Source: Azolla caroliniana
Lineage: Eukaryota; Plantae; Polypodiophyta
Length of the DNA: 64,000 nt
Assembly: GCA_043228905.1 (NCBI GenBank)
Contig: JBHGNT010000001.1
Span: forward strand, 12,834,001-12,898,000
Reading direction: 5' to 3'
Positions within the stretch are counted from its first letter, which is position 1; the number at the start of each line of letters is the position of its first letter. The notes beneath the pieces were generated by a model that was not told the origin of the DNA, did no database searches, and saw only the letters and a list, made by a program, of their open reading frames with translations. The position numbers and the translations under genes were made by a program. Below are positions 13,375-48,247 of the stretch, one piece after another.

Positions 13375-16300
13375 TGTGAAAGTGTTTTTAGAATCTAAGC
13401 CATTGAACATTAGGAGAATATAAAGTATAGATAATTCACCTTTTGAGGATAAGAACACGAACTAAGACCTTAGGGAAGAAGTCAAAAGTAAAAGTACGAG
13501 ACCAAGAGAAAAGTAAAAAGAGAAAACGCAGACTATAAAAAACAGTAAAAATAGAATGGTCATAACTCCCTCGTTGTTTATCCAAATATCACGTTTAAAT
13601 ATGGATTAGAAAGCTTGTAAAAAGAGCTTTCTATAGCTTTTTAAATCGCTTAATTTGGATATCGGATGAGGGAGATATGACGATTAGAAGGTTGATGTGT
13701 CATAGCTAAAAATAGGGAGATAAAAAGCTTCTAAAAATAGCATGAACGTGGATAAGAAGAGGAAGGTTATAAAAGAAGAAGTAATATTAGTGAGAAGGAA
13801 AAAGAGTGAAGGCCAAAGAGTGGATGAGGAGTGTTAGGAAGAAGTGTCTTTGTGGAAGAGGAAGTGTCTTAGAAGAGGAAGGTCTTTGGTTTTAGTTCAA
13901 TGTGGAGTTTGTCTCCTTTGTATTCTCTTGATGTTGGAATATCAGAATATTCTTATTTCTTGCTCGCTTTCTCTATCTTTTTTCTTAGTTTCTTGAGTTA
14001 TACTCTCTAATCATAATTACCTAGAACTATATAATATATTATGATTTTCAACTCCATCTAATCGGTTTGATCAAGCCCTCATATAGTGTATAACTATCTA
14101 TTATCTTATACATTCTATCATTTTTGGCGCTCCAGGGAGGGTCGATCCTTTCCGTATAGGAAGAGAAGTTATCATTTAATTGTGTTACTATATTACATTA
14201 ACTTAGCTATGCAATTTGCATTTTCGGGTGAAAGAACACAAGATGCTGGTGCCTTTTTGGCATGCTTTGAGCATCATGCCATATCTATTGGACGCATCAC
14301 CGACAACGAAAAGTTGCCCTTGTTGGTAGCTACATTCTATGGTCGTGCTCGAGATTGGTATGACTCTCTTCCGCAAAATGAACAAGGAGAATATCAATTA
14401 TTGGTGCATCAATTTCGTACAAGATATATTCAATGGAAAAGTGCAACTGAGGTAAGGGAGGAGCTTTTTCAACTAAAGATGGAATCACCTTTTGGTTTTT
14501 TAGAGTATGAACGAAATTTCCAAGAATTGTGGACGACGTGGATTCGTCTTCGTGGTGGCACCGAAGACGAGTGGTTTAAGATAGAACAATTTAAGGTGGG
14601 CCTTGATATGCATTTCCGTTTGGAGGCAAGCTTGAAGGATCCAACGACTTTTCAAGCTCTTCTCCAAGTTTGTCAAGATTATGATCGACAAGTGAAGATG
14701 ATGAGTTCCATGGGGGATCCCCAAATGACGGCTTTGGGTGCAAATTTGATGCCTCGTGCCAACTTTCAAGCCTCATCTTCAATTGTGCATGGGGGACAAG
14801 TGTTTCCAAATGTGTATACCACCACAACAATAAACCCAACAAGTATATCCCAAGAAGTTGAACAAGTGAGGAGTGAACAAGATACCATGGCATTGGTAAA
14901 TCGGCGCTTTGATGAAGTGATGGCCCACTTGCAACAATCCCAAGCAATTTCCAACACTATTCCCGATGGTGGTGGCTCTAGAGGGCATCAAGGTGTAATT
15001 TGTTATTCTTGTCAAGAGGAGGGACACTCAACAAGATGTCCTCATCGACAACAAAGAGGTATGGAAAGAGACATGTATGAAGTGCAACGGAATGGACAAC
15101 GACCTATCAACAATGGAGTCGAAGGAGGCGAATCCATAACACTTCCAATGACTCAGGTTCCTACAATTCCTCATAATGTGAATCTTCTTAATTTTATTGA
15201 TGATAGTGATAGTGCTTGTGAAGTAGCTCTTGTGAAAAGGACAAGAGCCTCGCAAAAGGAGAAAGAAGTTGAAGGAGAATCTAGTGACTCAAGACAAAAG
15301 AAGAAGTCTAAGGAGAATGAGAAAGAGGACAAATTGAGAAGGAGACACTCTAGAAGGAAGATAAAGATGAAGGATATTCCTATGGGAGAAGGTGTAGAAT
15401 CTTTCAATCGGAAGCATGAATTGATTTCAAGTGGACCAAGGATAACATGGCCGCAACTTCTCCAATTATCTCCCACATTACGAAAGGAGTGGGGGCGACT
15501 TGCAAGTATTCGCCAAAGTCGGAAGACTGTGCATTATGTGGGAATCGTGCGAGTAGAAGATCGAAAGGACATACGACCCACCATCCCCGTCTCCATCAAA
15601 GGGTTTCACATCAAAGATGCGTTGGTTGATAGTGGTGCTAGAGTAAGCTTGATTTCTGAATTTGTGGTAAACAAAGTGGGAATTCCTATTAGTAGGTCAT
15701 CTTCAACAAGGGTGGTTGTAGTAGATAGTGGAGTGGTGCATTGCACAAGCATAGTGGAGGATGTGTTCATCAAGTGTTTTGGAATAAGAGGAGAAGCTTG
15801 CAACAAATACCACATCAACTTGAAGGAAAGTGTATCAATTTCCCCAAAGCTTCGGCAATTGAGTGTTGAACAAAAGGAAGAATTTATGCAAGAGTTCAAC
15901 GCATGGTTACAAGAAAGTTCCAATTATAAGATGGAAGATTTGAGGTGTGTGTCACCTATAGTTTTGGTTCCAAAGAAGAATGAGATCAATTTCAAACCCT
16001 TGAATGATTCGACCAAACGAGATGAATTTTCACTTCCTTCTCGAGATGAGATTGTCGATAAAATGGTTGTTTATACAAAACAAGGTAGTGTGGACAATAT
16101 GTTGTGCCAAAAAGGATTTCATGTGGATGATTCAAAGATTAACATAATTACAAAGATGACAATTCCGACAAGTCTTGAAGCTTTGAAAGTATTTGTGCAA
16201 AAGGTGCGCTCGCTCGAAAGATTCATTTATATGTTGACATGCTTACTGCTATCAAGAGTGATGTATCCCATGGCCCTACTAGTCTTTGGAGAGTTAACGA

Positions 16301-17316
16301 AGACATAATGATTGTGGTAACCTCTTTCTTTGTGTTGACAAGGAGAAAGATGATGATGGAATTGTCAATGTGTGTGTGGGTGTGTCTAGGAGTGTGAGGT
16401 TTTTCCTACCGATTAGCGGGGGTTTTACTCACATCTTTTTATTTTCTTTTTATTATATCTCTCTCATTGTCTATAGCCAAGAGATTGGCGAGAGAGCTTT
16501 TGTTTGTTAAGTACTGCCAATAAGTGCTTCGCCATAAATGGCTTAGCCTCTAACAAGGGGGAGGGCTAAATGTGAAAGTGTTTTTAGAATCTAAGCCATT
16601 GAACATTAGGAGAATATAAAGTATAGATAATTCACCTTTTGAGGATAAGAACACGAACTAAGACCTTAGGGAAGAAGTCAAAAGTAAAAGTACGAGACCA
16701 AGAGAAAAGTAAAAAGAGAAAACGCAGACTATAAAAAACAGTAAAAATAGAATGGTCATAACTCCCTCGTTGTTTATCCAAATATCACGTTTAAATATGG
16801 ATTAGAAAGCTTGTAAAAAGAGCTTTCTATAGCTTTTTAAATCGCTTAATTTGGATATCGGATGAGGGAGATATGACGATTAGAAGGTTGATGTGTCATA
16901 GCTAAAAATAGGGAGATAAAAAGCTTCTAAAAATAGCATGAACGTGGATAAGAAGAGGAAGGTTATAAAAGAAGAAGTAATATTAGTGAGAAGGAAAAAG
17001 AGTGAAGGCCAAAGAGTGGATGAGGAGTGTTAGGAAGAAGTGTCTTTGTGGAAGAGGAAGTGTCTTAGAAGAGGAAGGTCTTTGGTTTTAGTTCAATGTG
17101 GAGTTTGTCTCCTTTGTATTCTCTTGATGTTGGAATATCAGAATATTCTTATTTCTTGCTCGCTTTCTCTATCTTTTTTCTTAGTTTCTTGAGTTATACT
17201 CTCTAATCATAATTACCTAGAACTATATAATATATTATGATTTTCAACTCCATCTAATCGGTTTGATCAAGCCCTCATATAGTGTATAACTATCTATTAT
17301 CTTATACATTCTATCA
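13375..17316 (+). mobile_element. Non-autonomous Ty3/gypsy-derived LTR element (gag-protease only, TR-GAG-like)
   Basis: 746-bp LTRs 13375-14120 and 16571-17316 appear identical. TSD GTATG at 13370-13374 and 17317-17321. PBS TGGCGCTCCAGGGAGGG at about 14125. PPT AAGGGGGAGGG before 16571. Confidence 0.95.
14209..16308 (+). CDS. Gag, aspartic protease and residual RT fragments in one open frame (no YxDD, RNase H or integrase)
   Basis: FSGERTQDAGAFL, GRARDWY, CYSCQEEGHSTRC, LVDSGA, SPIVLVPKK, FKPLNDSTKRDEFSLP. The first ATG after the PBS is taken as the start. Confidence 0.8.
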   Translation: MQFAFSGERTQDAGAFLACFEHHAISIGRITDNEKLPLLVATFYGRARDWYDSLPQNEQGEYQLLVHQFRTRYIQWKSATEVREELFQLKMESPFGFLEYERNFQELWTTWIRLRGGTEDEWFKIEQFKVGLDMHFRLEASLKDPTTFQALLQVCQDYDRQVKMMSSMGDPQMTALGANLMPRANFQASSSIVHGGQVFPNVYTTTTINPTSISQEVEQVRSEQDTMALVNRRFDEVMAHLQQSQAISNTIPDGGGSRGHQGVICYSCQEEGHSTRCPHRQQRGMERDMYEVQRNGQRPINNGVEGGESITLPMTQVPTIPHNVNLLNFIDDSDSACEVALVKRTRASQKEKEVEGESSDSRQKKKSKENEKEDKLRRRHSRRKIKMKDIPMGEGVESFNRKHELISSGPRITWPQLLQLSPTLRKEWGRLASIRQSRKTVHYVGIVRVEDRKDIRPTIPVSIKGFHIKDALVDSGARVSLISEFVVNKVGIPISRSSSTRVVVVDSGVVHCTSIVEDVFIKCFGIRGEACNKYHINLKESVSISPKLRQLSVEQKEEFMQEFNAWLQESSNYKMEDLRCVSPIVLVPKKNEINFKPLNDSTKRDEFSLPSRDEIVDKMVVYTKQGSVDNMLCQKGFHVDDSKINIITKMTIPTSLEALKVFVQKVRSLERFIYMLTCLLLSRVMYPMALLVFGELTKT

Positions 17317-36150: not shown

Positions 36151-36759
36151 TAGTTGAAATTATATTTCTATCATTGTACATTTACATGTAAATTCTCATA
36201 CATGAGAGCTAAAATGAGTGACATGGTTAGCATGCACCACATGTAATACTTAAGCGCCAAATGGCAAACATGCAATTTATGCATGTCTTGTACCCTCACA
36301 TGCATCATATGCATGAGAGCATCTATAAAAGAGGGAAGGGGGAGGAGAAAAAGACGGGTTTTTTTTTATGAAAATTAAGAAGAAGAAATTCGTTATCAAA
36401 TCAATCGTGTAATCTCATCTTCTCTCTTTCCCAATCTATCTTAAGTACTTTCTCGCCAAAGCTTGTATCGACTCTAAATCCTTCTGGTCCAGAACCCCGA
36501 CGGTTCCGCCTCACGATCCGCGCGTAGTGACGGATCTTCACGACATAATTAAGTGGTGAACCCGATGTGAACGAGGCGGTAGGTGTCATAACTAGACTCG
36601 AACCCATAACCTGTTGTTACATGGGTCGAGTCTTTACCGTTATATTATACATTGTAATTCGAAGTATATTATTTTCATTTATATTTTATTAGGAAATGGA
36701 TGTATATTCCAGATTTCTCTGGAACATTCTAGAAACTTCAGGAGTATTCCTGAAGACAC

Positions 36760-36766
36760 TATAAAA
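36760..36766 (+). promoter_or_regulatory. TATA box of the chromovirus LTR
   Basis: TATAAAA, 33 nt upstream of the predicted self-primer/TSS at 36793. Confidence 0.7.
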
Positions 36767-37039
36767 GGAGGCGCAAGGCATTAGTTCGAACCAAATCGGT
36801 TCAACGCCAGTCTTAAGCCTTCTAGCTGTTATTGTATATTTTCCTTCACCTAATACATATATCCTTCGTATCATCATTCTCTCTCTCTCTCTCTCTCTCC
36901 CTCTCACTCGTTCCTTCTCTCAACGTTCTACACCTCTCATAGTACTAATCCTTCTCTGTCTTAGTACTGTTCTCAACAATTGTACTAATCCTTCTTTTAG
37001 TACTAATTCCTTCTCCGCCTAGGTAGCGTTCCTGACAGT

Positions 37040-37051
37040 TTGAACCGATTT
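37040..37051 (+). promoter_or_regulatory. Self-priming PBS (Tf1 type)
   Basis: TTGAACCGATTT is the exact reverse complement of AAATCGGTTCAA at 36793-36804. Confidence 0.8.
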
Positions 37052-37134
37052 CCCTCCATCTGGTCTTTCTCTCCCTCTTCCTTCCCTTTTATCCTCCTTC
37101 TCTTCATACTAATACCCTTATTCTCCCTATCAAA

Positions 37135-38325
37135 ATGGAAACTGTTAGCGCTCAAGAATACCAATCTGTTTTCTCGGAGCTCCAGTCCTTAAAGGAGAAA
37201 TTTTTAGCGCTTGAACAAGAAAATCACCGCCTGTTGGGGGATCTTCAACAAACGGCGCTGGAAAAACAGCAACAACATGGGGAGCTGACGCTACGGGTAC
37301 AACAACTCGAAGCGACCATTATATCACTCCAACAACAAGGATCAGGTAATCAAGGGATTCACAGAGAACCCAAGATCGGTCTCCCTACAAAATTTGATGG
37401 GACCAGATCACAGTTTAGAGGATTCCTCAACCAAGTACGTCTAGTGATCCAAATGCATCCTTCTCGATATCCCACCGATGCATCCCGAGTGGGACTAGTT
37501 GGCACTCTACTTAGTGGCACGGCTTTGGCATGGTTCGCCCCTCTGTTAGAGAAAAACTCTCCCATGTTAAATAATTTTGAAGAGTTTATGAGCGAGTTTA
37601 AATCCTGTTTCGGAGATACTGACAGTGTTAGAACCGCCATCAACAAAATCCGGAGATTGCGCCAAGGTGAGCGGCCGGCCTCAGCTTATGCTGCGGACTT
37701 CCGTCTTCTTGCCAGCGATATTCCCTGGGATGACCAGGCATTGATGGAACAATTTCGCTTTGGCCTACGGAATGATGTTAAAGATCTACTCTTAACTTTC
37801 CCCGAAGAGCCAAAATCATTGACCGAAGCAATCAGTCGTGCGGTGCGATGCGATAACCGCCTCTTCGAACGACGCTCGGAACGTCAGTTCCAAATGCCAA
37901 GGACAAGATCGGAGCCTACCTATGCTTCAATCGTAGCAAAGCCTTTTTCAAGGGAGTCCTTCAGTACATCTCCAACGAATACTCCGACTCCAATGGAGAT
38001 CGACACCACACGTCGTCGCGGACCACTATCGGAAGAAGAAAAGCAGCGACGCAGGGCACATCGACTATGTTTGTATTGCGGGGGACCAGGGCATATTGCA
38101 GTAAACTGTCCCAATAGACCAAAAAGACAGGTAAACCAAATAATTGCCTGTACTAATAGTACTAAACCCGAGTCTGTTTCCCTAGGTGTGTCTGATAGTC
38201 TTAATAATACTAAAACTGAGTCTACTTCCCTAGGTATGCATGAAAGTTCTAATAGTACTTATAGTCCAAATTTAGTCAACAAATTTGATGTCCTTAGTCA
38301 GTTAGAAGAAGAGTTAAACTATTAA
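37135..38325 (+). CDS. Chromovirus Gag (coiled coil, capsid, CCHC)
   Basis: LPTKFDGTRSQFRGFL, LRQGERPASAYAADF, TPMEID, CLYCGGPGHIAVNC. Confidence 0.95.
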   Translation: METVSAQEYQSVFSELQSLKEKFLALEQENHRLLGDLQQTALEKQQQHGELTLRVQQLEATIISLQQQGSGNQGIHREPKIGLPTKFDGTRSQFRGFLNQVRLVIQMHPSRYPTDASRVGLVGTLLSGTALAWFAPLLEKNSPMLNNFEEFMSEFKSCFGDTDSVRTAINKIRRLRQGERPASAYAADFRLLASDIPWDDQALMEQFRFGLRNDVKDLLLTFPEEPKSLTEAISRAVRCDNRLFERRSERQFQMPRTRSEPTYASIVAKPFSRESFSTSPTNTPTPMEIDTTRRRGPLSEEEKQRRRAHRLCLYCGGPGHIAVNCPNRPKRQVNQIIACTNSTKPESVSLGVSDSLNNTKTESTSLGMHESSNSTYSPNLVNKFDVLSQLEEELNY

Positions 38326-38351
38326 GTCCAGCCAAAATAGGAGCCGTTTGG

Positions 38352-41300
38352 TTGGACAGCCCTAGATCTGTGCAGCCCATTAGTGGTTCCATTCCCTCTA
38401 AGCAAGTTAGTGATGTGTTCGTAGCCCAAGTAGCAGTTAGTACTAAAAGTACCCCTCCAGTACATACCTTAGCACTTCTAGATTCCGGAGCTAATTCTTG
38501 CTTTATGGATAGGAATTTTGCCCAAGCCCATCAGATATCCCTCAGTAAGCTCCCGTGTCCAGCCTCAGTAGTAGTCATTGATGGTCGTCCCATTGCTTCT
38601 GGGAATATCATAGAAGAGTCAGAACCTGTTAATATTGTCCTAGATAACTTAGCATGTGTAGTGTCGTTTAATATTATTAGTATCCCAGAACATCCCATAG
38701 TTTTAGGATTACCATGGTTCGAATTACACAATCCAAACATAGATTGGAGAACAAGGGCAATCCGGTGTCGACAAACCCAAAAGACAATGGCAACCATTTC
38801 GCTACATCAGTTGCGTGAAGAAGGGCGCAAGGAGGAGATGTTCCTTTTCGCAATATCAGTAAACCCCTCCATCACCACTAAAGAAGACAGTACTGTTCAA
38901 CTCCCCGAGAAGTATCGTCAGTACGCTGATGTGTTCGATAAAGTACAAGCCAACACACTTCCTCATCATCGGCCGTACGATTGCGCCATCGACTTACAAC
39001 CGGGAAAAGAGCCGCCATGGGGGCCGATCTACAGTTTGTCACCAACCGAGCTAAAAGTCCTTCGAGCCTATATAGAGGAGAATTTGGAGAACGGTTTCAT
39101 TCGGCATTCGAAATCTCCAGCCGGCGCACCCATTTTCTTCGTCAAGAAAAAAGATGGCTCGCTTCGACTTGTTGTAGATTACCGTGGCTTGAATAAGGTT
39201 ACAATAAGAAATAGGTATGCTCTTCCCCTTATCTCAAGTCTTTTAGAACGAATCAATGGTGCCAGGTTCTTCACGAAGATCGATTTACGAGGAGCCTATA
39301 ACCTCGTACGAATCCGACCAGGAGATGAATGGAAGACCGCGTTTCGCACCAGATATGGGCACTTCGAGTATACGGTCATGCCGTTCGGACTCACTAATGC
39401 GCCAGCAGTCTTCCAGCACATGGCGAATGATATATTTCGAGATCTATTGGATGATTTTCTGATCATCTATTTAGATGATCTACTGGTTTATTCAAAGACC
39501 CAAGAAGAACATGATTCTCATGTACTATTAGTACTAAAACGACTTCGAGAACATGGGCTATATGCAAAGCTAGAGAAATGTAGTTTCGGGTGCAACCAGG
39601 TGGAATTTCTCGGATATGTCATCTCCTCAGAAGGCATCTCTATGGACCCAGCTAAGGTCAAAACGGTGGTAGAATGGCAAACTCCGCGTTCGGTGCGGGA
39701 TGTGCAGTGCTTCCTAGGCTTTGCAAATTTTTACCGGAAGTTCATACAAGACTACTCAAAAATAGTTCTGCCTCTCACACAGCTCACCAGGAAAGGACAA
39801 TCATTTATCTGGTCTAAAGAAACGGACATGGCTTTCGAGAGTCTTAAGAAGGCGTTCACATCAGCTCCAATTCTAGGTCATGTGGATCCGGAACAACCAT
39901 TCATTATCGAAGCTGACGCATCTGATTTCGCATTGGGGAGCATTTTGTCACAACAGGGTAATGACGAGAAGCTGCATCCTGTGGCTTTCCACTCCCGTAA
40001 GTTTGACGCCGCCGAAATCAACTACGAAATTCACGATAAAGAGCTATTGGCAATAGTTGATTCTTTTATACAGTGGAGGCATTTTCTCGAGGGATCTCCT
40101 CATCAAGTCACTGTATTCAGTGACCACAAGAACCTTGCCTACTTTCAAGATGCTCGTGTACTGAATCGACGTCAAGCTCGATGGGCCCACTTCCTCACAC
40201 GCTTCGACTTCAAAATTACATATCGTCCGGGGAAGCACCAAGGGAAGGCAGATGCATTATCACGACGTTCGTATCTAACACCACGTCCCGGGGAGCCAGC
40301 TTTCGATAACCAGAAGCAAGTAATCTTGGGACCAGCACGACTACAAGGAGCACAGGTCTTTGACATGCCCATGGACTCTGACGTCACCAATACTATACGT
40401 GAGGACTTGAAGACTGACGCCTTCGCCCAAGCTATACTAGCACAAATTGACCCCTGTCGAGCGTCATGTTCACAGTCACAACCACCAGGTACTGACTATC
40501 GGCAATTTAAATACTGTGATGGATTACTCTTCTTTAAAGAACTTTTGTATGTTCCTAATGGTTCTTGCCGCCTTCGAGTAGTACAAAACTGCCATGACAC
40601 ATATACAGCAGGACATTTCGGTAGTACTAAAACATTAGATTTAGTACAACGATCATTCTGGTGGCCCCGTATGCAACAATTTGTCAAAGATTTTGTTCGG
40701 ACTTGTGACACCTGTTGCAGAGCGAAAATGCCAAGGCATCATCCATATGGTTTATTAGAACCATTACCAATTCCAAGCAAGCCATGGCAATCCATTGCTC
40801 TCGACTTCATCACAGATCTTCCAGTCTCTAAGGAGTTCAACGCGATTCTAACAGTGGTGGATCGATATACGAAGATGGCTCATTTCTTACCATGTACTAA
40901 GGAAATATCTAGTGAAGACACCGCCGAAATTGTCATGCGGGAAGTATGTCGGCATCATGGACTTCCCGATAGTATCATTAGCGATCGTGGACCCCAGTTT
41001 GTATCCAAATTCTGGAAGCACCTTTTTAAGATGCTCAAGGTGACTTGTAACCTCTCCTCCGGCTACCACCCACAAACCGACGGTCAAGCCGAACGAACAA
41101 ATCAAACATTGGAGCAGTATCTGCGGTGCTTTCTCAGCTATCATCAGGATGACTGGGCAGATATTCTTCACTTCGCCGAATTTGCCTATAATAACGCTAT
41201 CCACGCATCGACTAAAGTTACGCCATTCTATGCTTATACGGGATGTCATCCCCGGTGGTCTGTCCTTGAAGTCCCAGAAGTGTCCACAAATCCGTGCGCG

Positions 41301-41900
41301 GAGGATCGTTTGGAGCGATTACGCAAGATACAAGAAGATTTATCTACTCAACTCCAGCATGCTCAACAATCACACAAGGACTACGCAGATCGTCATCGAC
41401 TTCCATCCAGTTTTAACATTGGGGATCGGGTGTGGCTGCTACGACGACACATCAAGACTACTCGCCCATGTGAAAAATTGGATTATCGGCGATTAGGTCC
41501 TTTCCGTATTATCGGAAAGATTAATGATGTCGCTTTTCGTCTCGATCTACCTCCGCAACTTCGGATACATCCGGTATTTCATAGTTCCCTCCTTGAACCT
41601 TATCACGAGAGCACTATCCCAGGACGGATTACACAACCTCCACCTCCTATCGAGCTTGAAGATGGACCTGAGTATGAGGTCGCTGCCATCCTTGATTCCA
41701 AGATTGTTCGCAATAAGCTCTACTATCTAGTCGATTGGCTAGGGTATAGTCCCAGCGAGCGTACTTGGGAGCCGATCGAGAACGTGACCAATGCTCGTGC
41801 TCTTCTTGAAGACTTCCATCGTCGATATCCAGAGAAACCGGGTCCTCAATCTAAAACGACTCGTGGAACTCGTCGTTTTAAAGGGGGGATAGTGTCATAA
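38352..41900 (+). CDS. Chromovirus Pol (PR-RT-RNase H-INT-chromodomain), -1 frame relative to gag
   Basis: LLDSGA, YLDD, EADASD, HDKELLA, H..H/C..C zinc finger, LDFIT, SDRG, QTDGQAER, GPF, EYEVAAILD..YLVDWLGY..TWEP. Uninterrupted, and ends just inside the 3' LTR. Confidence 0.96.
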   Translation: MDSPRSVQPISGSIPSKQVSDVFVAQVAVSTKSTPPVHTLALLDSGANSCFMDRNFAQAHQISLSKLPCPASVVVIDGRPIASGNIIEESEPVNIVLDNLACVVSFNIISIPEHPIVLGLPWFELHNPNIDWRTRAIRCRQTQKTMATISLHQLREEGRKEEMFLFAISVNPSITTKEDSTVQLPEKYRQYADVFDKVQANTLPHHRPYDCAIDLQPGKEPPWGPIYSLSPTELKVLRAYIEENLENGFIRHSKSPAGAPIFFVKKKDGSLRLVVDYRGLNKVTIRNRYALPLISSLLERINGARFFTKIDLRGAYNLVRIRPGDEWKTAFRTRYGHFEYTVMPFGLTNAPAVFQHMANDIFRDLLDDFLIIYLDDLLVYSKTQEEHDSHVLLVLKRLREHGLYAKLEKCSFGCNQVEFLGYVISSEGISMDPAKVKTVVEWQTPRSVRDVQCFLGFANFYRKFIQDYSKIVLPLTQLTRKGQSFIWSKETDMAFESLKKAFTSAPILGHVDPEQPFIIEADASDFALGSILSQQGNDEKLHPVAFHSRKFDAAEINYEIHDKELLAIVDSFIQWRHFLEGSPHQVTVFSDHKNLAYFQDARVLNRRQARWAHFLTRFDFKITYRPGKHQGKADALSRRSYLTPRPGEPAFDNQKQVILGPARLQGAQVFDMPMDSDVTNTIREDLKTDAFAQAILAQIDPCRASCSQSQPPGTDYRQFKYCDGLLFFKELLYVPNGSCRLRVVQNCHDTYTAGHFGSTKTLDLVQRSFWWPRMQQFVKDFVRTCDTCCRAKMPRHHPYGLLEPLPIPSKPWQSIALDFITDLPVSKEFNAILTVVDRYTKMAHFLPCTKEISSEDTAEIVMREVCRHHGLPDSIISDRGPQFVSKFWKHLFKMLKVTCNLSSGYHPQTDGQAERTNQTLEQYLRCFLSYHQDDWADILHFAEFAYNNAIHASTKVTPFYAYTGCHPRWSVLEVPEVSTNPCAEDRLERLRKIQEDLSTQLQHAQQSHKDYADRHRLPSSFNIGDRVWLLRRHIKTTRPCEKLDYRRLGPFRIIGKINDVAFRLDLPPQLRIHPVFHSSLLEPYHESTIPGRITQPPPPIELEDGPEYEVAAILDSKIVRNKLYYLVDWLGYSPSERTWEPIENVTNARALLEDFHRRYPEKPGPQSKTTRGTRRFKGGIVS

Positions 41901-42374
41901 CTAGACTCGAACCCATAACCTGTTGTTACATGGGTCGAGTCTTTACCGTTATATTATACATTGTAATTCGAAGTATATTATTTTCATTTATATTTTATTA
42001 GGAAATGGATGTATATTCCAGATTTCTCTGGAACATTCTAGAAACTTCAGGAGTATTCCTGAAGACACTATAAAAGGAGGCGCAAGGCATTAGTTCGAAC
42101 CAAATCGGTTCAACGCCAGTCTTAAGCCTTCTAGCTGTTATTGTATATTTTCCTTCACCTAATACATATATCCTTCGTATCATCATTCTCTCTCTCTCTC
42201 TCTCTCTCCCTCTCACTCGTTCCTTCTCTCAACGTTCTACACCTCTCATAGTACTAATCCTTCTCTGTCTTAGTACTGTTCTCAACAATTGTACTAATCC
42301 TTCTTTTAGTACTAATTCCTTCTCCGCCTAGGTAGCGTTCCTGACAGTAGGAAAGATCAAGTCGAGATTAATAC

Positions 42375-44579
42375 TTGGAGATGGCGTCCTCAAGCAACCA
42401 AGCGGGAGAGCTCGAAAGGATGATGCTAATCGTCGAGCAAATGATGAGATCTCGGGACAACGACGCGAGCGTGGAGAAGGCTGTTGATCGTGTCGTAGAG
42501 CTCGAGGGCCAATTCGATGGAAGGAATGTTACGAAGTTCTTTGATGCATATAAGAGGGAGATGAATCAAAGGGACGTGTCCGAGGCACGTCAAATCGCAA
42601 GCTTCAAGAGAGTTGTCGCCAACAACATCCAAAGACGCGTCATCGAGCTTCAAGAAGGAAAGACAACATGGTCCGAGTTCGAGAAAACGATACTAGCGGA
42701 GTTCGTGACTGAAGACTCAACGAGGATGACTCGACATGCCCTGATGAAGTGGATAGAGAAGAAGAATAAGAAGATGAGCGTCTCGAGGGTGTACGACGAA
42801 TTCGACCAGATGTTTAGTCGTCTCCCCAATACGGACCAAGTGTTGCTTGAAGAGGACAAGACTTTGTACTTCTTGAAGGCCGTGGACATAAAGGATAGAC
42901 GGGAGTTGGGGACTCTTCTCGAAGATGATACCCAAGCAAATGGGCTCATAGCGGACTGGATCGCGGTGAAGCGGGCATGCAATAGGCTCGACAAGCGTCG
43001 CCAATGGGTTGATGACACCGACTTGACGGGACCGACTACCACGGAGAAAGCAAGACCGCCGAAAGTAGCTGAGCCGCCAAGACAAAGTAACGTGGAAGAA
43101 AAGAAGATTGATGACGACATCATTGAAGAGCTAGCGAAGAAGTTCGAGAAGGTCACGCTAGCCAACATGAATCGTCGGGGCCCTAAAGGAAAAAAACCCT
43201 TTAGATGCGTGTGGTGCGATAGCATGGACCACATGAGAAGGGATTGTGCGAGCCTTCGAGAGGCGATTCGACAAAATATCGTATACATAGAGGACAACAT
43301 GATCTGCTCAAGCGAGACTAGAAGACCCCTACGGGTGAATTTCGGAAGAGGAGGAATGAAGAGATCTATGGAGGATGCCGATGCGACTCATGTGGATGCG
43401 ATGCACTATGCTGCGTCGGCCGGAATAAGAGTCGGGAAAGACAAGACTAAAGCTGCTAGAGCGGGAGCAAAGTTTTGGACTTCCGTTCTCGAATATGAGA
43501 AGAAGGGAAAAATCACATCGAACGAGGTAGAGCTTGCGGACCGAAGCGTGCAAAGCATAACCGGGTGGTCGGATCCGGTGGACGACAACACCATACTTGC
43601 AGAGGTGATGTGCGACAACCACGAGGTGTTCGTCGAAGAAAAGAGAAAGAGAATAGAAGAGCAAGGGCCATCAAAAAGACATGAAACAAGGAACGCGAAA
43701 AAGAAGGACGATGCGGAGACGAGTCGACCTTTACAAACGGAGGAACGAGAATCAAGCCGAAAAGGGGAGCTGAGCATACGAGTTGAAGAAACGGTTCGGC
43801 CCGTGAAGGTTGGTGTCGAAGACCCCGCTCGGAGGACAAGGACCATACCTACCTATAAGCTAAGGTCGGACATAGAGCAGATGACGGACCTAAAGAAGAT
43901 TCTCGAAGAACGAGTTCTTGATAGCCACGTGACTTTGTCCTTGAGGGAATTGCTTGGCATTACGAAGAAGGAGTTCCATGACACGATCGTGGACCTTGTA
44001 AAGAGAAAGAGACAACAATCGGACGAGGAAGAAGAGAAGCCGCAGAAAGCAAAAACGAATGCCATAACGATGGCAAGAGACGAAATCGATGAAGATATGG
44101 TGGACAGCCACTACACTCGACCTCATTGGGCACGAGCGACAACGGAGACGCCGGTGAAGATCGGGGAGAAGAAAGAGACCGTCGTAGCCTTGATCGACCA
44201 CGGCTCGGAGATCAACCTCATGTCAACCGACTTCTACAAAATGGGAAGATGGCCAATCAATACAAACCACGGATGGAAGATTCGCGCGGCAACAAAGTCT
44301 ACGGAGGACTTGTACAGAGCTTGTCCCAATGTCAAAGTCACGATCGGGGATGTGGAGATGGATCAACACTTCTTCGTACAAGAATCGGCATTGCATCCTG
44401 TCATCCTAGGGCAACCTTATATCACATCATCTCGGATGGAGACCAAAGTGTTCGATAATGGAGCAGCCTTCGCACGAATAAAGAGTCTTGACAACCAAAG
44501 ATCGGTCCAATTCCTAACCGTGCGAGCCAATCATGAAAGGAATCGAGATAGTCTCGGAGGCGAATCCTCGGATTTTTAG
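42375..44579 (+). CDS. Gag plus protease of the Trp-primed gypsy element
   Basis: FDGRNVTKF, CVWCDSMDHMRRDC, ALIDHGSEINL, VILGQP; 734-aa open frame. Confidence 0.9.
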   Translation: MEMASSSNQAGELERMMLIVEQMMRSRDNDASVEKAVDRVVELEGQFDGRNVTKFFDAYKREMNQRDVSEARQIASFKRVVANNIQRRVIELQEGKTTWSEFEKTILAEFVTEDSTRMTRHALMKWIEKKNKKMSVSRVYDEFDQMFSRLPNTDQVLLEEDKTLYFLKAVDIKDRRELGTLLEDDTQANGLIADWIAVKRACNRLDKRRQWVDDTDLTGPTTTEKARPPKVAEPPRQSNVEEKKIDDDIIEELAKKFEKVTLANMNRRGPKGKKPFRCVWCDSMDHMRRDCASLREAIRQNIVYIEDNMICSSETRRPLRVNFGRGGMKRSMEDADATHVDAMHYAASAGIRVGKDKTKAARAGAKFWTSVLEYEKKGKITSNEVELADRSVQSITGWSDPVDDNTILAEVMCDNHEVFVEEKRKRIEEQGPSKRHETRNAKKKDDAETSRPLQTEERESSRKGELSIRVEETVRPVKVGVEDPARRTRTIPTYKLRSDIEQMTDLKKILEERVLDSHVTLSLRELLGITKKEFHDTIVDLVKRKRQQSDEEEEKPQKAKTNAITMARDEIDEDMVDSHYTRPHWARATTETPVKIGEKKETVVALIDHGSEINLMSTDFYKMGRWPINTNHGWKIRAATKSTEDLYRACPNVKVTIGDVEMDQHFFVQESALHPVILGQPYITSSRMETKVFDNGAAFARIKSLDNQRSVQFLTVRANHERNRDSLGGESSDF

Positions 44580-47500
44580 AGCGGACTATTGAAGCATGGG
44601 GCACAAATAGTCCGAGCAATCACAAGACCCCACAAGAAAGAAGAGCGCGTGGATTGCAAGGAGAAGCAACATGTGTCACACCTAGTGGCGCATGTAAACT
44701 AGTACTACCCGACAAGAAGCACAAGCGCCGGATACAAGAATTCGAGAAGATGCTGAAAGAAGAGAACATAATAGAAGAAGGAGAGTTCGTGACTCATATT
44801 ATGGAAGAAGCCTCATTTAACGACACCATCGGCGAAATCGAGGACGTCGTGGACTTGAGCTATCTTCACAACCAACGTGTGATTTTGGTTAACTCCGTCA
44901 ACATGTACGCTATCATCGATGAATACCGTCGTGGCATCTTGATGAATGAAGCTGACATCAACACGAAATATAAAACAGTGGATAAGAAGATCAAGCCAGT
45001 TGCGGTTCTGCTACCGGAAGATAGCTGGCAAAAGATGAAGGAAGTCGCTAACGATCCAAGCTTAAGAGATCTGAAGAAGATAGGTCATGACTTCACCAAA
45101 GAGACGAAGGGGAAGCTACGAGTTGGAAAGGAGGATTTCCTTCTCCCTGAAGAGGAGCGAATGTTTCGCGATATGCTTGAGAGACATGGGAAGGCTTTCG
45201 CATTCTTCCCACGAGAAATCGGATGCGCCGACCCAAAAGTTATAGAGCCAATGGTGATCTTCATGGTGCCTCATGTGCCTTGGAATTTGAAACCGATACC
45301 GGTTCCGAGAGCACACCTTCCGAAGCTGATTGAGCTCTTAAAAGAGAAGGTGAGTATGGGAATTCTAGAACCGTCGAATGCTCCTTATTCCAATAGGTGG
45401 TTCACGGTGCCGAAGAAGAATGGATCATTGCGATTCATCCAAGATCTTCAACCCGTCAACAAGGTGTCAATTCGAAATGCCGGAATCGGTCCGAGCGTGG
45501 ACGAATTTGCCGAAGCGTTTGCGGGCCAGTCCATCTACTCCATTGGCGATCTCTACTCCGGATATGACCAATTCCAGTTGGCGATCGACAGTCGGGACAT
45601 TACAACCATGAGGACTTTGATCGGGCTTGTGCGGATGTGTACCTTACCCCAAGGCGCAACGAACTCGGTGGCTCATATGGTGAATGCCATGAATAAAGTC
45701 TTGAAGGATTGCATTCCGGACATCACGATGCCATTCTTGGATGATATTCCAATAAAAGGATGTTCGGATGAGGAGAAAGATGAATCGAAAGATAAGGAAG
45801 GTTGTAGAAAGTTCGTTGCGGATCATATGAAAGATTGCGAGAAGGTGCTTCAAAGGCTCGAAGATGCGAATTTGACATTTTCGGGAGAAAAATCCGCATT
45901 CGGGCAACCAGAGATCTTGGTGGTAGGTCACTTGTGTGGAGCATACGGCCGGAAGCCCTCGCCATCCAAAGTGAATGCAATCCAAGACATGAAAGAAGAA
46001 TGCGAAAACCAAACGGAGGTTCGAAGGTTCCTTGGAGCGTGCGCGTTTTATCATATATGGATTCCTCACTACGCTCATGTCGCCGAACCGTTATATGGAC
46101 TACTAAAGAAAAGAATAAAGTTCGAATGGCGAGACGAGCACACAGAGGCGATGCAAAGATTAAAGAAACTGCTTCTTGAAGCTCCGGCACTAAGGAAGGC
46201 CGACTATGCCGAAGGGAAACCAATTTACGTGACCGTAGATACGAGCCCAACCGGAATCGGGTGGGTCATCAATCAAGAAGGTGAAGATAATGCGCGATAT
46301 GCCGTCCGGTTCGGAGCAAAGGTTCTCAGCAAACAGCAACAAAGATATGCCCAAGTCAAGCGGGAACTTTGGTGTATTGTGTCGGCAGTGAAGACGGACA
46401 AAGATTACCTGATCGGGTCAGAAGTGATAATAGAGACAGATTGTCTCCCAATTCTCGGAATGGTCTCGGGATGTTCGACCCCAGATCTTGCTATGCTAAG
46501 GTGGATCGCCTACATCAAGTCTTTAAACCCAGAGATCCGTCTCATCGCAGGGAAGAAGAACGCCATGGCTGACATGCTGTCGAGGGCAAGATTTTCAAAT
46601 GGAAGTAACATGGTTTCGGAAGATGAAGATGTCGCCCTCGACTTCTTCAAGATGGCTCGATTGTCGGCGGAAGACCAGGACACGCAAACCCTCCACGCCT
46701 TCAACGAGAACGAGTACGAAGGAGAGTGGTTACTCATCGGTAGATTCCTAAGAATATTGACGGCAGATGCTTCGTTGACAAAGGAGGAGGCCCTACGAAT
46801 CCAAAAGAAAGCTTACCGATACTTCTTGAAGGGAGGATTCCTTTGGCGACATCCAAAAAGAAGGACAGGAATACCACGTCGAGTGGTGGTAAAGAAAGAA
46901 GAGCAAGAGACGCTAATGACCGAATTCCACGAGAGTGCTTGGGCAGGTCATAGAGGAACATGGGCGACGTTCGAAAAGTTGAAGGAGAAGTACTGGTGGC
47001 CAAGCATGTACAAAGATGTACTCCATTTCGTGTCCACATGCGAAACTTGCCAAGTATATTCAAATATACGTCATCGTGATGAGTTAAAGCCGACATACCC
47101 ACTCACCATACACTTCAAATGGATGGTGGATCTGGTCTCGATGCCAATGGGAGTGGGACAAATGAAGTACTTAGCGTTGGCAAGGGAAGACTTGACAAAT
47201 CAAGTGGAAGGACGAGCCTTGACAAATAAGATGACTTCAGCCGTTTGCAAATTTCTACTTGAAGATGTTGTTTGCCGATATGGATGTGTAGGGAAGATAG
47301 TGGCCGACCGAGGGGAGTTGGACGCGCACGAAGCGACGGAGCTCTTCGAAAGACTAGGCGTGAAGCTCTCCCTCACGACTGCCTACAATCCGGAAGCAAA
47401 TGGGAAGATCGAGCGAGGGCATGGACCTATCGTTAAAGCCATCGTACGGGCATGCGACGGTCGAGTCGGGAATTGGCCATGACTATTACCCTATGCCTTG

Positions 47501-47758
47501 TGGGCCGATAGAACGACACATAGCTCGGTGACAGGGTATATGCCGACGGAGCTTATGTATGGACAAAAGCCGATTATGCCCATCGAAAGGACGATCGCCT
47601 CATGGGTAGCGATACCGTGGGGGAACGAGATGAGCCGAGAAGAGTTATTAGCGGCGCGGATAAGGCAACTTGAAAGAAGACCTGAAGATTTAGAAAAAGC
47701 GCGAAAGATGATGAAGGCAGCCCGAGTAAAGAACAAAGTTCGGTTCGACAACACGCAT
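44570..47758 (+). pseudogene. Pol (RT-RNase H-INT) of the Trp-primed gypsy element; one TGA at 47480, cut by the gap
   Basis: WFTVPKKNGSLRFIQDL, GDLYSGY, LPQG, FLDD, VDTSP, GHRG, ADRGE, NGKIER. The frame is open from 44570. Confidence 0.9.
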
Positions 47759-47858
47759 NNNNNNNNNNNNNNNNNNNNNNNNNNNNNNNNNNNNNNNNNN
47801 NNNNNNNNNNNNNNNNNNNNNNNNNNNNNNNNNNNNNNNNNNNNNNNNNNNNNNNNNN
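47759..47858. other. Assembly gap (100 N)
   Basis: Run of N replacing the integrase end, PPT and most of the 3' LTR. Confidence 0.98.
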
Positions 47859-48247
47859 ACAAATCAATCGTGTAATCTCATCTTCTCTCTTTCCCAATCT
47901 ATCTTAAGTACTTTCTCTCCAAAGCTTGTATCGACTCTAAATCCTTCTGGTCCAGAACCCCGGCGGTTCCGCCTCACGATCCGCGCGTAGTGACGGATCT
48001 TCACGACATCGGATGCCTTCACCTTATAGATGAATTCATTCGAGAACTACTCCTTTCCTCCATCCGATCATAGGCATCGAATGTGCCAATCGGTTTCTTT
48101 TTCGACTTGGCTCTAAGACTTGAGCTTTTGGACGTGGGAGAGCACTTTACTCTTCTTCTTCATTAGGAAGATCCATGTGTAGAGGGAGTAGTCGTCAATG
48201 AAGGTCACGTAGCATCGGCATCTGCCGATCATCAGCGTTTGGGCCGG

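Follow-up and report, generated by a model that had tools for sequence, protein, structure and literature searches.

The element described here lies in a stretch of 64,000 nucleotides of the Azolla caroliniana genome (contig JBHGNT010000001.1, positions 12,834,001 to 12,898,000 of the forward strand), which we refer to as the window. Positions 36584-42346 of the window are occupied by an LTR retrotransposon, a chromovirus of the Tf1/sushi (Tcn1-like) group, with the following features.

36579-36583, + strand: 5' target-site duplication (TSD), GTAGG
36584-37037, + strand: 5' LTR, 454 bp, TG..CA ends, no mismatch to the 3' LTR
36760-36766, + strand: TATA box (TATAAAA), 32-33 nt upstream of the 12-mer in each family examined
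36793-36804, + strand: predicted self-primer (the 12-mer), putatively the first 12 nt of the RNA
36803-36805, + strand: putative site of the cut, behind nt 11 or nt 12; ends of inverted R-U5 in misfired copies cluster from here to 36813
37038-37039, + strand: GT spacer, identical across the families examined
37040-37051, + strand: primer-binding site (PBS), exact complement of 36793-36804
37052-37054, + strand: hypervariable tract abutting the 3' side of the PBS, 1-5 nt long depending on the subfamily
37135-38325, + strand: gag, 396 aa, with Retrotrans_gag, Ty3_capsid and a weak CCHC match (Pfam)
38298-41900, + strand: pol frame (-1), overlapping gag, with PR motif, RT, RNase H, integrase, Tf2-like SH3 and chromodomain
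38313-38357, + strand: candidate -1 frameshift signal (predicted), GTTAAAC followed by an 11-bp hairpin
41880-41892, + strand: polypurine tract (PPT) and TAG
41893-42346, + strand: 3' LTR
42347-42351, + strand: 3' target-site duplication, GTAGG

The domains follow the Ty3/gypsy order, with gag, PR-RT-RH-IN and a chromodomain identified by Pfam and the DSGA motif of PR read from the translation. The chromodomain carries the Tyr, Trp and Tyr of the aromatic cage, at positions that we assigned from HP1 and presume to be equivalent. Within the gag/pol overlap, the GTTAAAC heptamer is followed 6 nt downstream by the 11-bp hairpin, and the segment has a predicted folding energy of -16 kcal/mol. The insertion site is the leader of an older gypsy element (36397-48009), which has no chromodomain, a DUF4100 gag and a separate pol. 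Elsewhere in the window, a perfect 746-bp direct repeat (13375-14120 and 16571-17316) surrounds a 699-aa gag/protease-like ORF and marks a young LTR element that is possibly non-autonomous.

As originally predicted, the element is intact: the two 454-bp LTRs are identical, the GTAGG duplication is preserved, and both frames are unbroken, with 396 aa in gag and 1200 open codons in pol. As to the prediction that it may be active, the identical LTRs and the 12 copies of its young family, which are 96.6-100% identical, document recent transposition and not present activity. Contigs from four sets aligned to the element with patchy cover and 85% likeness, and are unable to mark a transcript start.

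In a tree of RT-RH sequences the element falls within a 17-row clade of fungal and vertebrate elements (support 99/100), apart from seed-plant (angiosperm) and algal chromoviruses; the tree comprises 23 hits hand-picked from 120 listed, the query and one long outgroup, and includes no named Tcn1 reference (Cryptococcus Tcn1, PpatensLTRs, SM-Tcn1). The Tcn1 clade has been reported in mosses and Selaginella (PMC2864245), and 83% of 1500 plant Tcn1 elements have been predicted to prime themselves, on the criterion of a complementary stretch of 10 bp or more (PMC6317226). For the Selaginella element SM-Tcn1, neither tRNA priming nor self-priming was evident in the available part of PMC2864245. The idea of self-priming in the plant Tcn1 clade is therefore not new, and is in print on the strength of sequence (PMC6317226); what we add is covariation and two genomic footprints.

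The PBS, TTGAACCGATTT at 37040-37051, matches the reverse complement of 36793-36804 letter for letter, and this is the longest such match. The original prediction had located it just after the 5' LTR; the complementarity is exact, but the PBS begins 2 nt beyond the LTR end, after the GT spacer. The predicted distance of 33 nt between TATAAAA and the 12-mer holds when counted from the first T at 36760. Complementarity of 12 nt or more arose by chance in 2 of 20000 shuffled LTRs. Exact sites joining the LTR end to a PBS of the element's type (type A/B, see below) number 580 in the G000 assembly (523 Mb), against 0 for the control. The absence of a TGG-tRNA PBS was confirmed too: no TGG directly follows the LTR, and the nearest, 24 nt downstream, is missing from other subfamilies. 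Under the self-priming rule of PMC6317226, which asks for a complement of at least 10 bp at 0-5 nt past the LTR, the element would be classed as self-priming, and it also has the 5-bp TSD.

In computed folds, the 12-mer and the PBS of one RNA pair with a probability of 0.997-1.000 for each of seven assumed RNA starts. The element's own 5' end could instead prime from a second, co-packaged RNA, that is, in trans and without intramolecular fold-back. Every observation reported here is compatible with a primer from a partner RNA, and the helices that would flank the duplex are weak: in a Tf1-like three-duplex fold, a short invariant inner helix is found in three of four folds, without covariation, and the outer helix has 5 bp and is not conserved, so that the Tf1 'pretzel' is not clearly present in these models. 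The intramolecular fold is nevertheless near-certain in silico, and Tf1 works via a fold of its 5' UTR (PMC10085805), and we regard priming from a partner RNA as unlikely.

A second alternative is a primer acting in trans, either a tRNA fragment with its end in the T-loop or some other small RNA, in which case the match to the LTR would be a side effect. A motif resembling the T-loop occurs in the 12-mer, which has 10 nt in common with tRNA-Thr, -Ala, -Gln and -Leu genes of the assembly. These T-arm matches, however, cover 10 of the 12 nt in all four cases inspected, and the number of tRNA-type pattern hits (39) equals that of the control (36). The survey was made with the A/B type primer, and 30 of the 39 hits were scanned, yielding nine tRNA-bearing loci, from which the four were taken. 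Two further observations, on covariation and on strand breaks, also speak against such a primer (see below), which we consider very improbable.

Several features of tRNA-like sequences were seen alongside. With a B-box/T-loop consensus that we take to be the Pol III motif, three matches were found in the 454-bp LTR, at 36784-36792 (+), 36799-36807 (+) and 36595-36603 (-); two of them flank the predicted start as a small inverted repeat, and one overlaps the primer. The tRNA genes with T-arm matches to the primer are at loci L304, L316, L320 and L324-L329. Locus L304 adjoins a piece of bacterial-type LSU rRNA and the tRNA-Ala copies are grouped on small contigs, possibly representing organellar or symbiont DNA. 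Copia elements of the tRNA-Met type are also present in the G000 assembly, as is a tRNA-Thr(GGU) insert that is probably of plastid type.

If pairing between the 12-mer and the PBS matters, the two should change together, and this is what a comparison across families reveals. Five primer/PBS types (A/B, C, D, E and F) differ at positions 2, 3, 4, 5, 7 and 8, and every change is compensated on the partner strand; covariation across family members was a check that the original prediction had proposed. In all five types the PBS has 12 nt and lies 2 nt past the LTR, and the 12-mer is 32-33 nt from the TATA box where one was found. The pairs other than A/B come from other G000 families and from metagenome contigs whose RT identity is 79-86% (type C at L126, L128, L227 and L231; type D at L108 and L115; type E at L244, L247, L249 and L252; type F at L093). 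The covariation was read from loci with clear anchors, and a search with Pfam DUF4939 returned many old copies without a detectable pair. Pairing is perfect in 105 of the 130 copies of the anchored table, in which the PBS side was largely preselected and the LTR side alone is unselected; most other copies have one mismatch, at a CpG. Among the metagenome loci, 42 of 77 were examined, and the canonical 12-bp pair was present in seven. Relatives at 51-54% RT identity have weak or off-pattern matches only.

The mechanism itself may enforce this covariation, because the PBS would be recopied from the primer in each cycle. A tRNA-derived primer does not account for a PBS that changes along with the LTR 12-mer over five types.

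The first genomic footprint of priming is a burst of variation directly 3' of the PBS, seen in five clusters (n=12, 33, 26, 13 and 6) among 122 de-duplicated normal copies. Within the young family (n=12), the pairwise diversity reaches 0.62, 0.59 and 0.41 at positions +1 to +3 after the PBS and is 0.00 over +4 to +110. Diversity peaks at the same place in the four further clusters, over backgrounds of 0.003-0.042; the largest cluster was partly chosen by a downstream anchor. The first base after the PBS is T in 74 copies, C in 32, G in 15 and A in one (n=122), and the tract is C/T-rich. The peak is absent in two tRNA-Met-primed copia control families (30 copies in each, at 89-95% identity to the query copy); in the first of these, 29 of 30 copies are identical across 26 nt.

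We infer that reverse transcriptase runs off the 5' end of the primer and that the untemplated bases it adds are fixed at the second strand transfer, which would place the start of the RNA at 36793. The constant distance from the TATA box lends this start indirect support as well. The hot spot could alternatively stem from recombination between subfamilies at the second strand transfer, or from slippage in the pyrimidine run, since subfamilies are told apart by deletions that adjoin the PBS on its 3' side, and C and T predominate in the tract. Either process would have to produce six variants at +1 to +3 among the 12 young copies, which are identical elsewhere over 107 nt, and to spare the bases just downstream, which are equally pyrimidine-rich and invariant. 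This makes run-off from the primer the better explanation, and recombination or slippage an improbable one. In some copies the PBS is extended by G, GG or GGT, which may reflect alternative starts upstream, confounded with untemplated addition; 15 of the 122 copies begin with G. A control for breaks at the predicted start, of low power, gave three matches, of which two are point variants and the third is a deletion in U3 with microhomology.

The second footprint is found in copies in which the PBS continues into inverted U3. A degenerate pattern detected 88 such places, with 0 for the control. The pooled loci gave 89 event rows, or 88 after removal of one duplicate; L097, which duplicates L082, was dropped, and L081, L088 and L089 were counted as a single event, present at three places. 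We refer to these copies as misfires. They have U3 or U5 ends at both termini, and sizes down to 418 bp. A perfect 5-bp TSD flanks 36 of the 89 rows, and a 4/5 match 13 more, compared with a mean of 1.6 and a maximum of 6 after shuffling; 15 rows have too little flank for a TSD to be read. The perfect TSDs imply that the misfires were most likely inserted by integrase in their present form.

Three other origins of the misfires were considered and rejected. A simple inversion of the DNA between the 12-bp inverted repeats would put the PBS and the 5' UTR at the far junction, and the real far junctions join R to distant internal sequence. Assembly artefacts are ruled out by the TSDs, and auto-integration by the position of the junctions, which are not at LTR termini.

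Individual loci illustrate the range of structures. Mini-insertions of 418-679 bp, made of LTR parts only in mirror arrangement and flanked by TSDs, occur once each at L402 (G000:C21, about 10385093), L348 and L344. The event shared by L081, L088 and L089 (G000:C2, C12) is nested in a related element, in the same context three times, so that either its host element carried it along or a segmental duplication multiplied it; two of these copies flank an assembly gap.

The events fall into two classes. Eleven of the 88 keep U3, primer, R and U5 intact and are plus-strand fold-backs, such as L348 (656 bp, TSD TCTAC) and L344 (679 bp, TSD 4/5); L395 and L404 are full fold-backs preceded by the PPT. 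The other 77 (class II) read, on the sense strand, as U3, the 12-mer, inverted GT-U5-R and then other sequence, which in 62 of the 77 is coding sequence of the element and often extends to the 3' LTR. The inverted GT-U5-R piece is what minus strong-stop DNA would look like with the primer still attached.

The breaks in these class II events are not spread evenly. In 22 of the 71 measured events the inverted R-U5 piece ends at 36803-36813 (offsets -1 to +9), where 4.4 are expected (P=1.3e-10 under uniform breaks), and with six further events read by eye the total is 23 of 77. No end lies inside 36793-36802 (offsets -11 to -2) in the 71 measured events. The remaining 49 breaks are located deeper in R-U5, a group whose size is inflated where alignments drop off or copies were rearranged later. 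One or two A's from the tail of the primer are present at five ends, and the cut may accordingly come after nt 11, the position known from Tf1, or after nt 12. The empty interval also bears on the tRNA fragment discussed above, because a primer acting in trans would allow strong-stop copying through 36793-36804, which is seen in none of the 71 class II breaks that were measured.

We take the boundary at 36803-36805 to be, probably, a map of the RNA cut. Another scenario, which we rate as possible though distinctly less probable, accepts self-priming and denies that the boundary records the cut. Plus strong-stop DNA would fold back, with its PBS sitting on the start of R and extending over U3, and would be nicked in the loop and extended; position 36805 would then be the edge of the stem only. 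Full fold-backs do exist, in 11 events, and a nicked plus-strand hairpin also predicts an empty interval within the 12-mer. In 47 of the 77 class II events the next piece is oriented as in a jump onto minus cDNA, an orientation compatible with both models. However, random nicking in the loop would distribute the breaks uniformly and would not give a five-fold pile-up at -1 to +9. What we regard as diagnostic is how the breaks are distributed, and not the presence of a fold-back by itself. The next piece in another 15 events is oriented as in a mis-aimed first strand transfer onto RNA (15 more are unassigned), and the second end of L082, where R begins at +1 (36805) at a 6-nt microhomology, has no hairpin. 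Targeted searches for hairpin-free breaks at exactly +1 gave this end of L082 only, L098/L099 and L380 being fold-back events. Even if the loop is nicked, reverse transcription involves pairing of the PBS with the 12-mer.

The two footprints are independent, and their positions fit the predicted ends of the primer. With the complementarity and its covariation, they lead us to hold it very likely that the element primes reverse transcription with the first 11-12 nt of its own RNA. We propose that transcription begins at 36793, that the 5' 12 nt of the RNA pair with the PBS, and that cleavage of the RNA behind nt 11 or 12, for which RNase H is the probable enzyme by analogy with Tf1, then provides a 3'-OH. 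Minus strong-stop DNA would copy GT, U5 and R and end near 36804-05. The primer would remain attached and be copied as far as its 5' end during plus-strand synthesis; untemplated bases added at that point would be fixed directly 3' of the PBS at the second strand transfer. The copied PBS is complementary to the start of R on plus strands as well, so it would sometimes mis-anneal there and copy U3, giving rise to mirror-ended misfires that integrase may still insert.

We lean towards regarding the genome as a fossil record of self-primed reverse transcription, in which run-off bases mark the 5' end of the primer, dozens of captured and integrated minus strong-stop DNAs mark the cut, and mirror-ended misfires are a recurrent, integrase-accepted by-product of the complementarity between PBS and 5' end. 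If this is true, both ends of a plant self-primer can be mapped without experiments, here with nucleotide-level predictions of a start at 36793 and a cut after nt 11-12. The same two footprints would test any lineage with predicted self-priming, and many lineages for which it is merely predicted would gain a test that needs a genome only. Self-priming is proven for fission-yeast Tf1, and the plant Tcn1 case has so far consisted of complementarity alone, with one study seeing no sign of it; the footprints would take the argument beyond 'could pair' and on to 'paired during reverse transcription'. The design appears to have a cost, with 88 distinct fold-back events alongside the 580 exact LTR-end and PBS sites of the A/B type alone, and the inverted-repeat insertions that misfires yield are likely missed by LTR annotators. 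No prior report of either footprint was found by title or by the start of the abstract, in a search that covered few subscription journals.

The closest known relatives by description are the plant Tcn1 chromoviruses (REXdb chromovirus|Tcn1; PMC6317226, PMC2864245), which share with the element the domain order with chromodomain, the 5-bp TSD, overlapping gag and pol, the size and the lack of a tRNA PBS. The survey of PMC6317226 inferred self-priming by complementarity alone, and covariation, the hot spot and misfire junctions were not found in its available text. A Tf1-type mechanism, which the original prediction described as proposed for the element's group and which PMC6317226 had already predicted for the clade, gains support here from the covariation and both footprints.

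In Tf1 and Tf2 of Schizosaccharomyces pombe, likewise, the 5' end of the RNA complements the PBS and the primer is short. Tf1 RNA is cleaved between nt 11 and 12 (PMC7175516), and in Tf1 cDNA a PBS copy is retained, with untemplated nucleotides added at the 3' end (PMC11042837), which fits the first footprint. The element differs from these in its predicted duplex of 12 bp (11 in Tf1), its 2-nt spacer, the lack of an evident pretzel and the overlap of gag and pol.

RLG1 of Physcomitrium patens (PMC7466625), compared by description, is also an abundant gypsy family that bears a chromodomain and has moved recently, it belongs to a non-seed plant, and its affinity is possibly fungal; the term 'PBS' is absent from the main text of that paper as available. 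Finally, the inversion circles that arise by auto-integration in Arabidopsis virus-like particles (PMC7197481) resemble the misfires in being inverted, defective products of the retrotransposon cycle. Those circles join LTR ends to internal sites, whereas the junctions described here lie at the primer/PBS and in R, and the misfires are chromosomal and flanked by TSDs.
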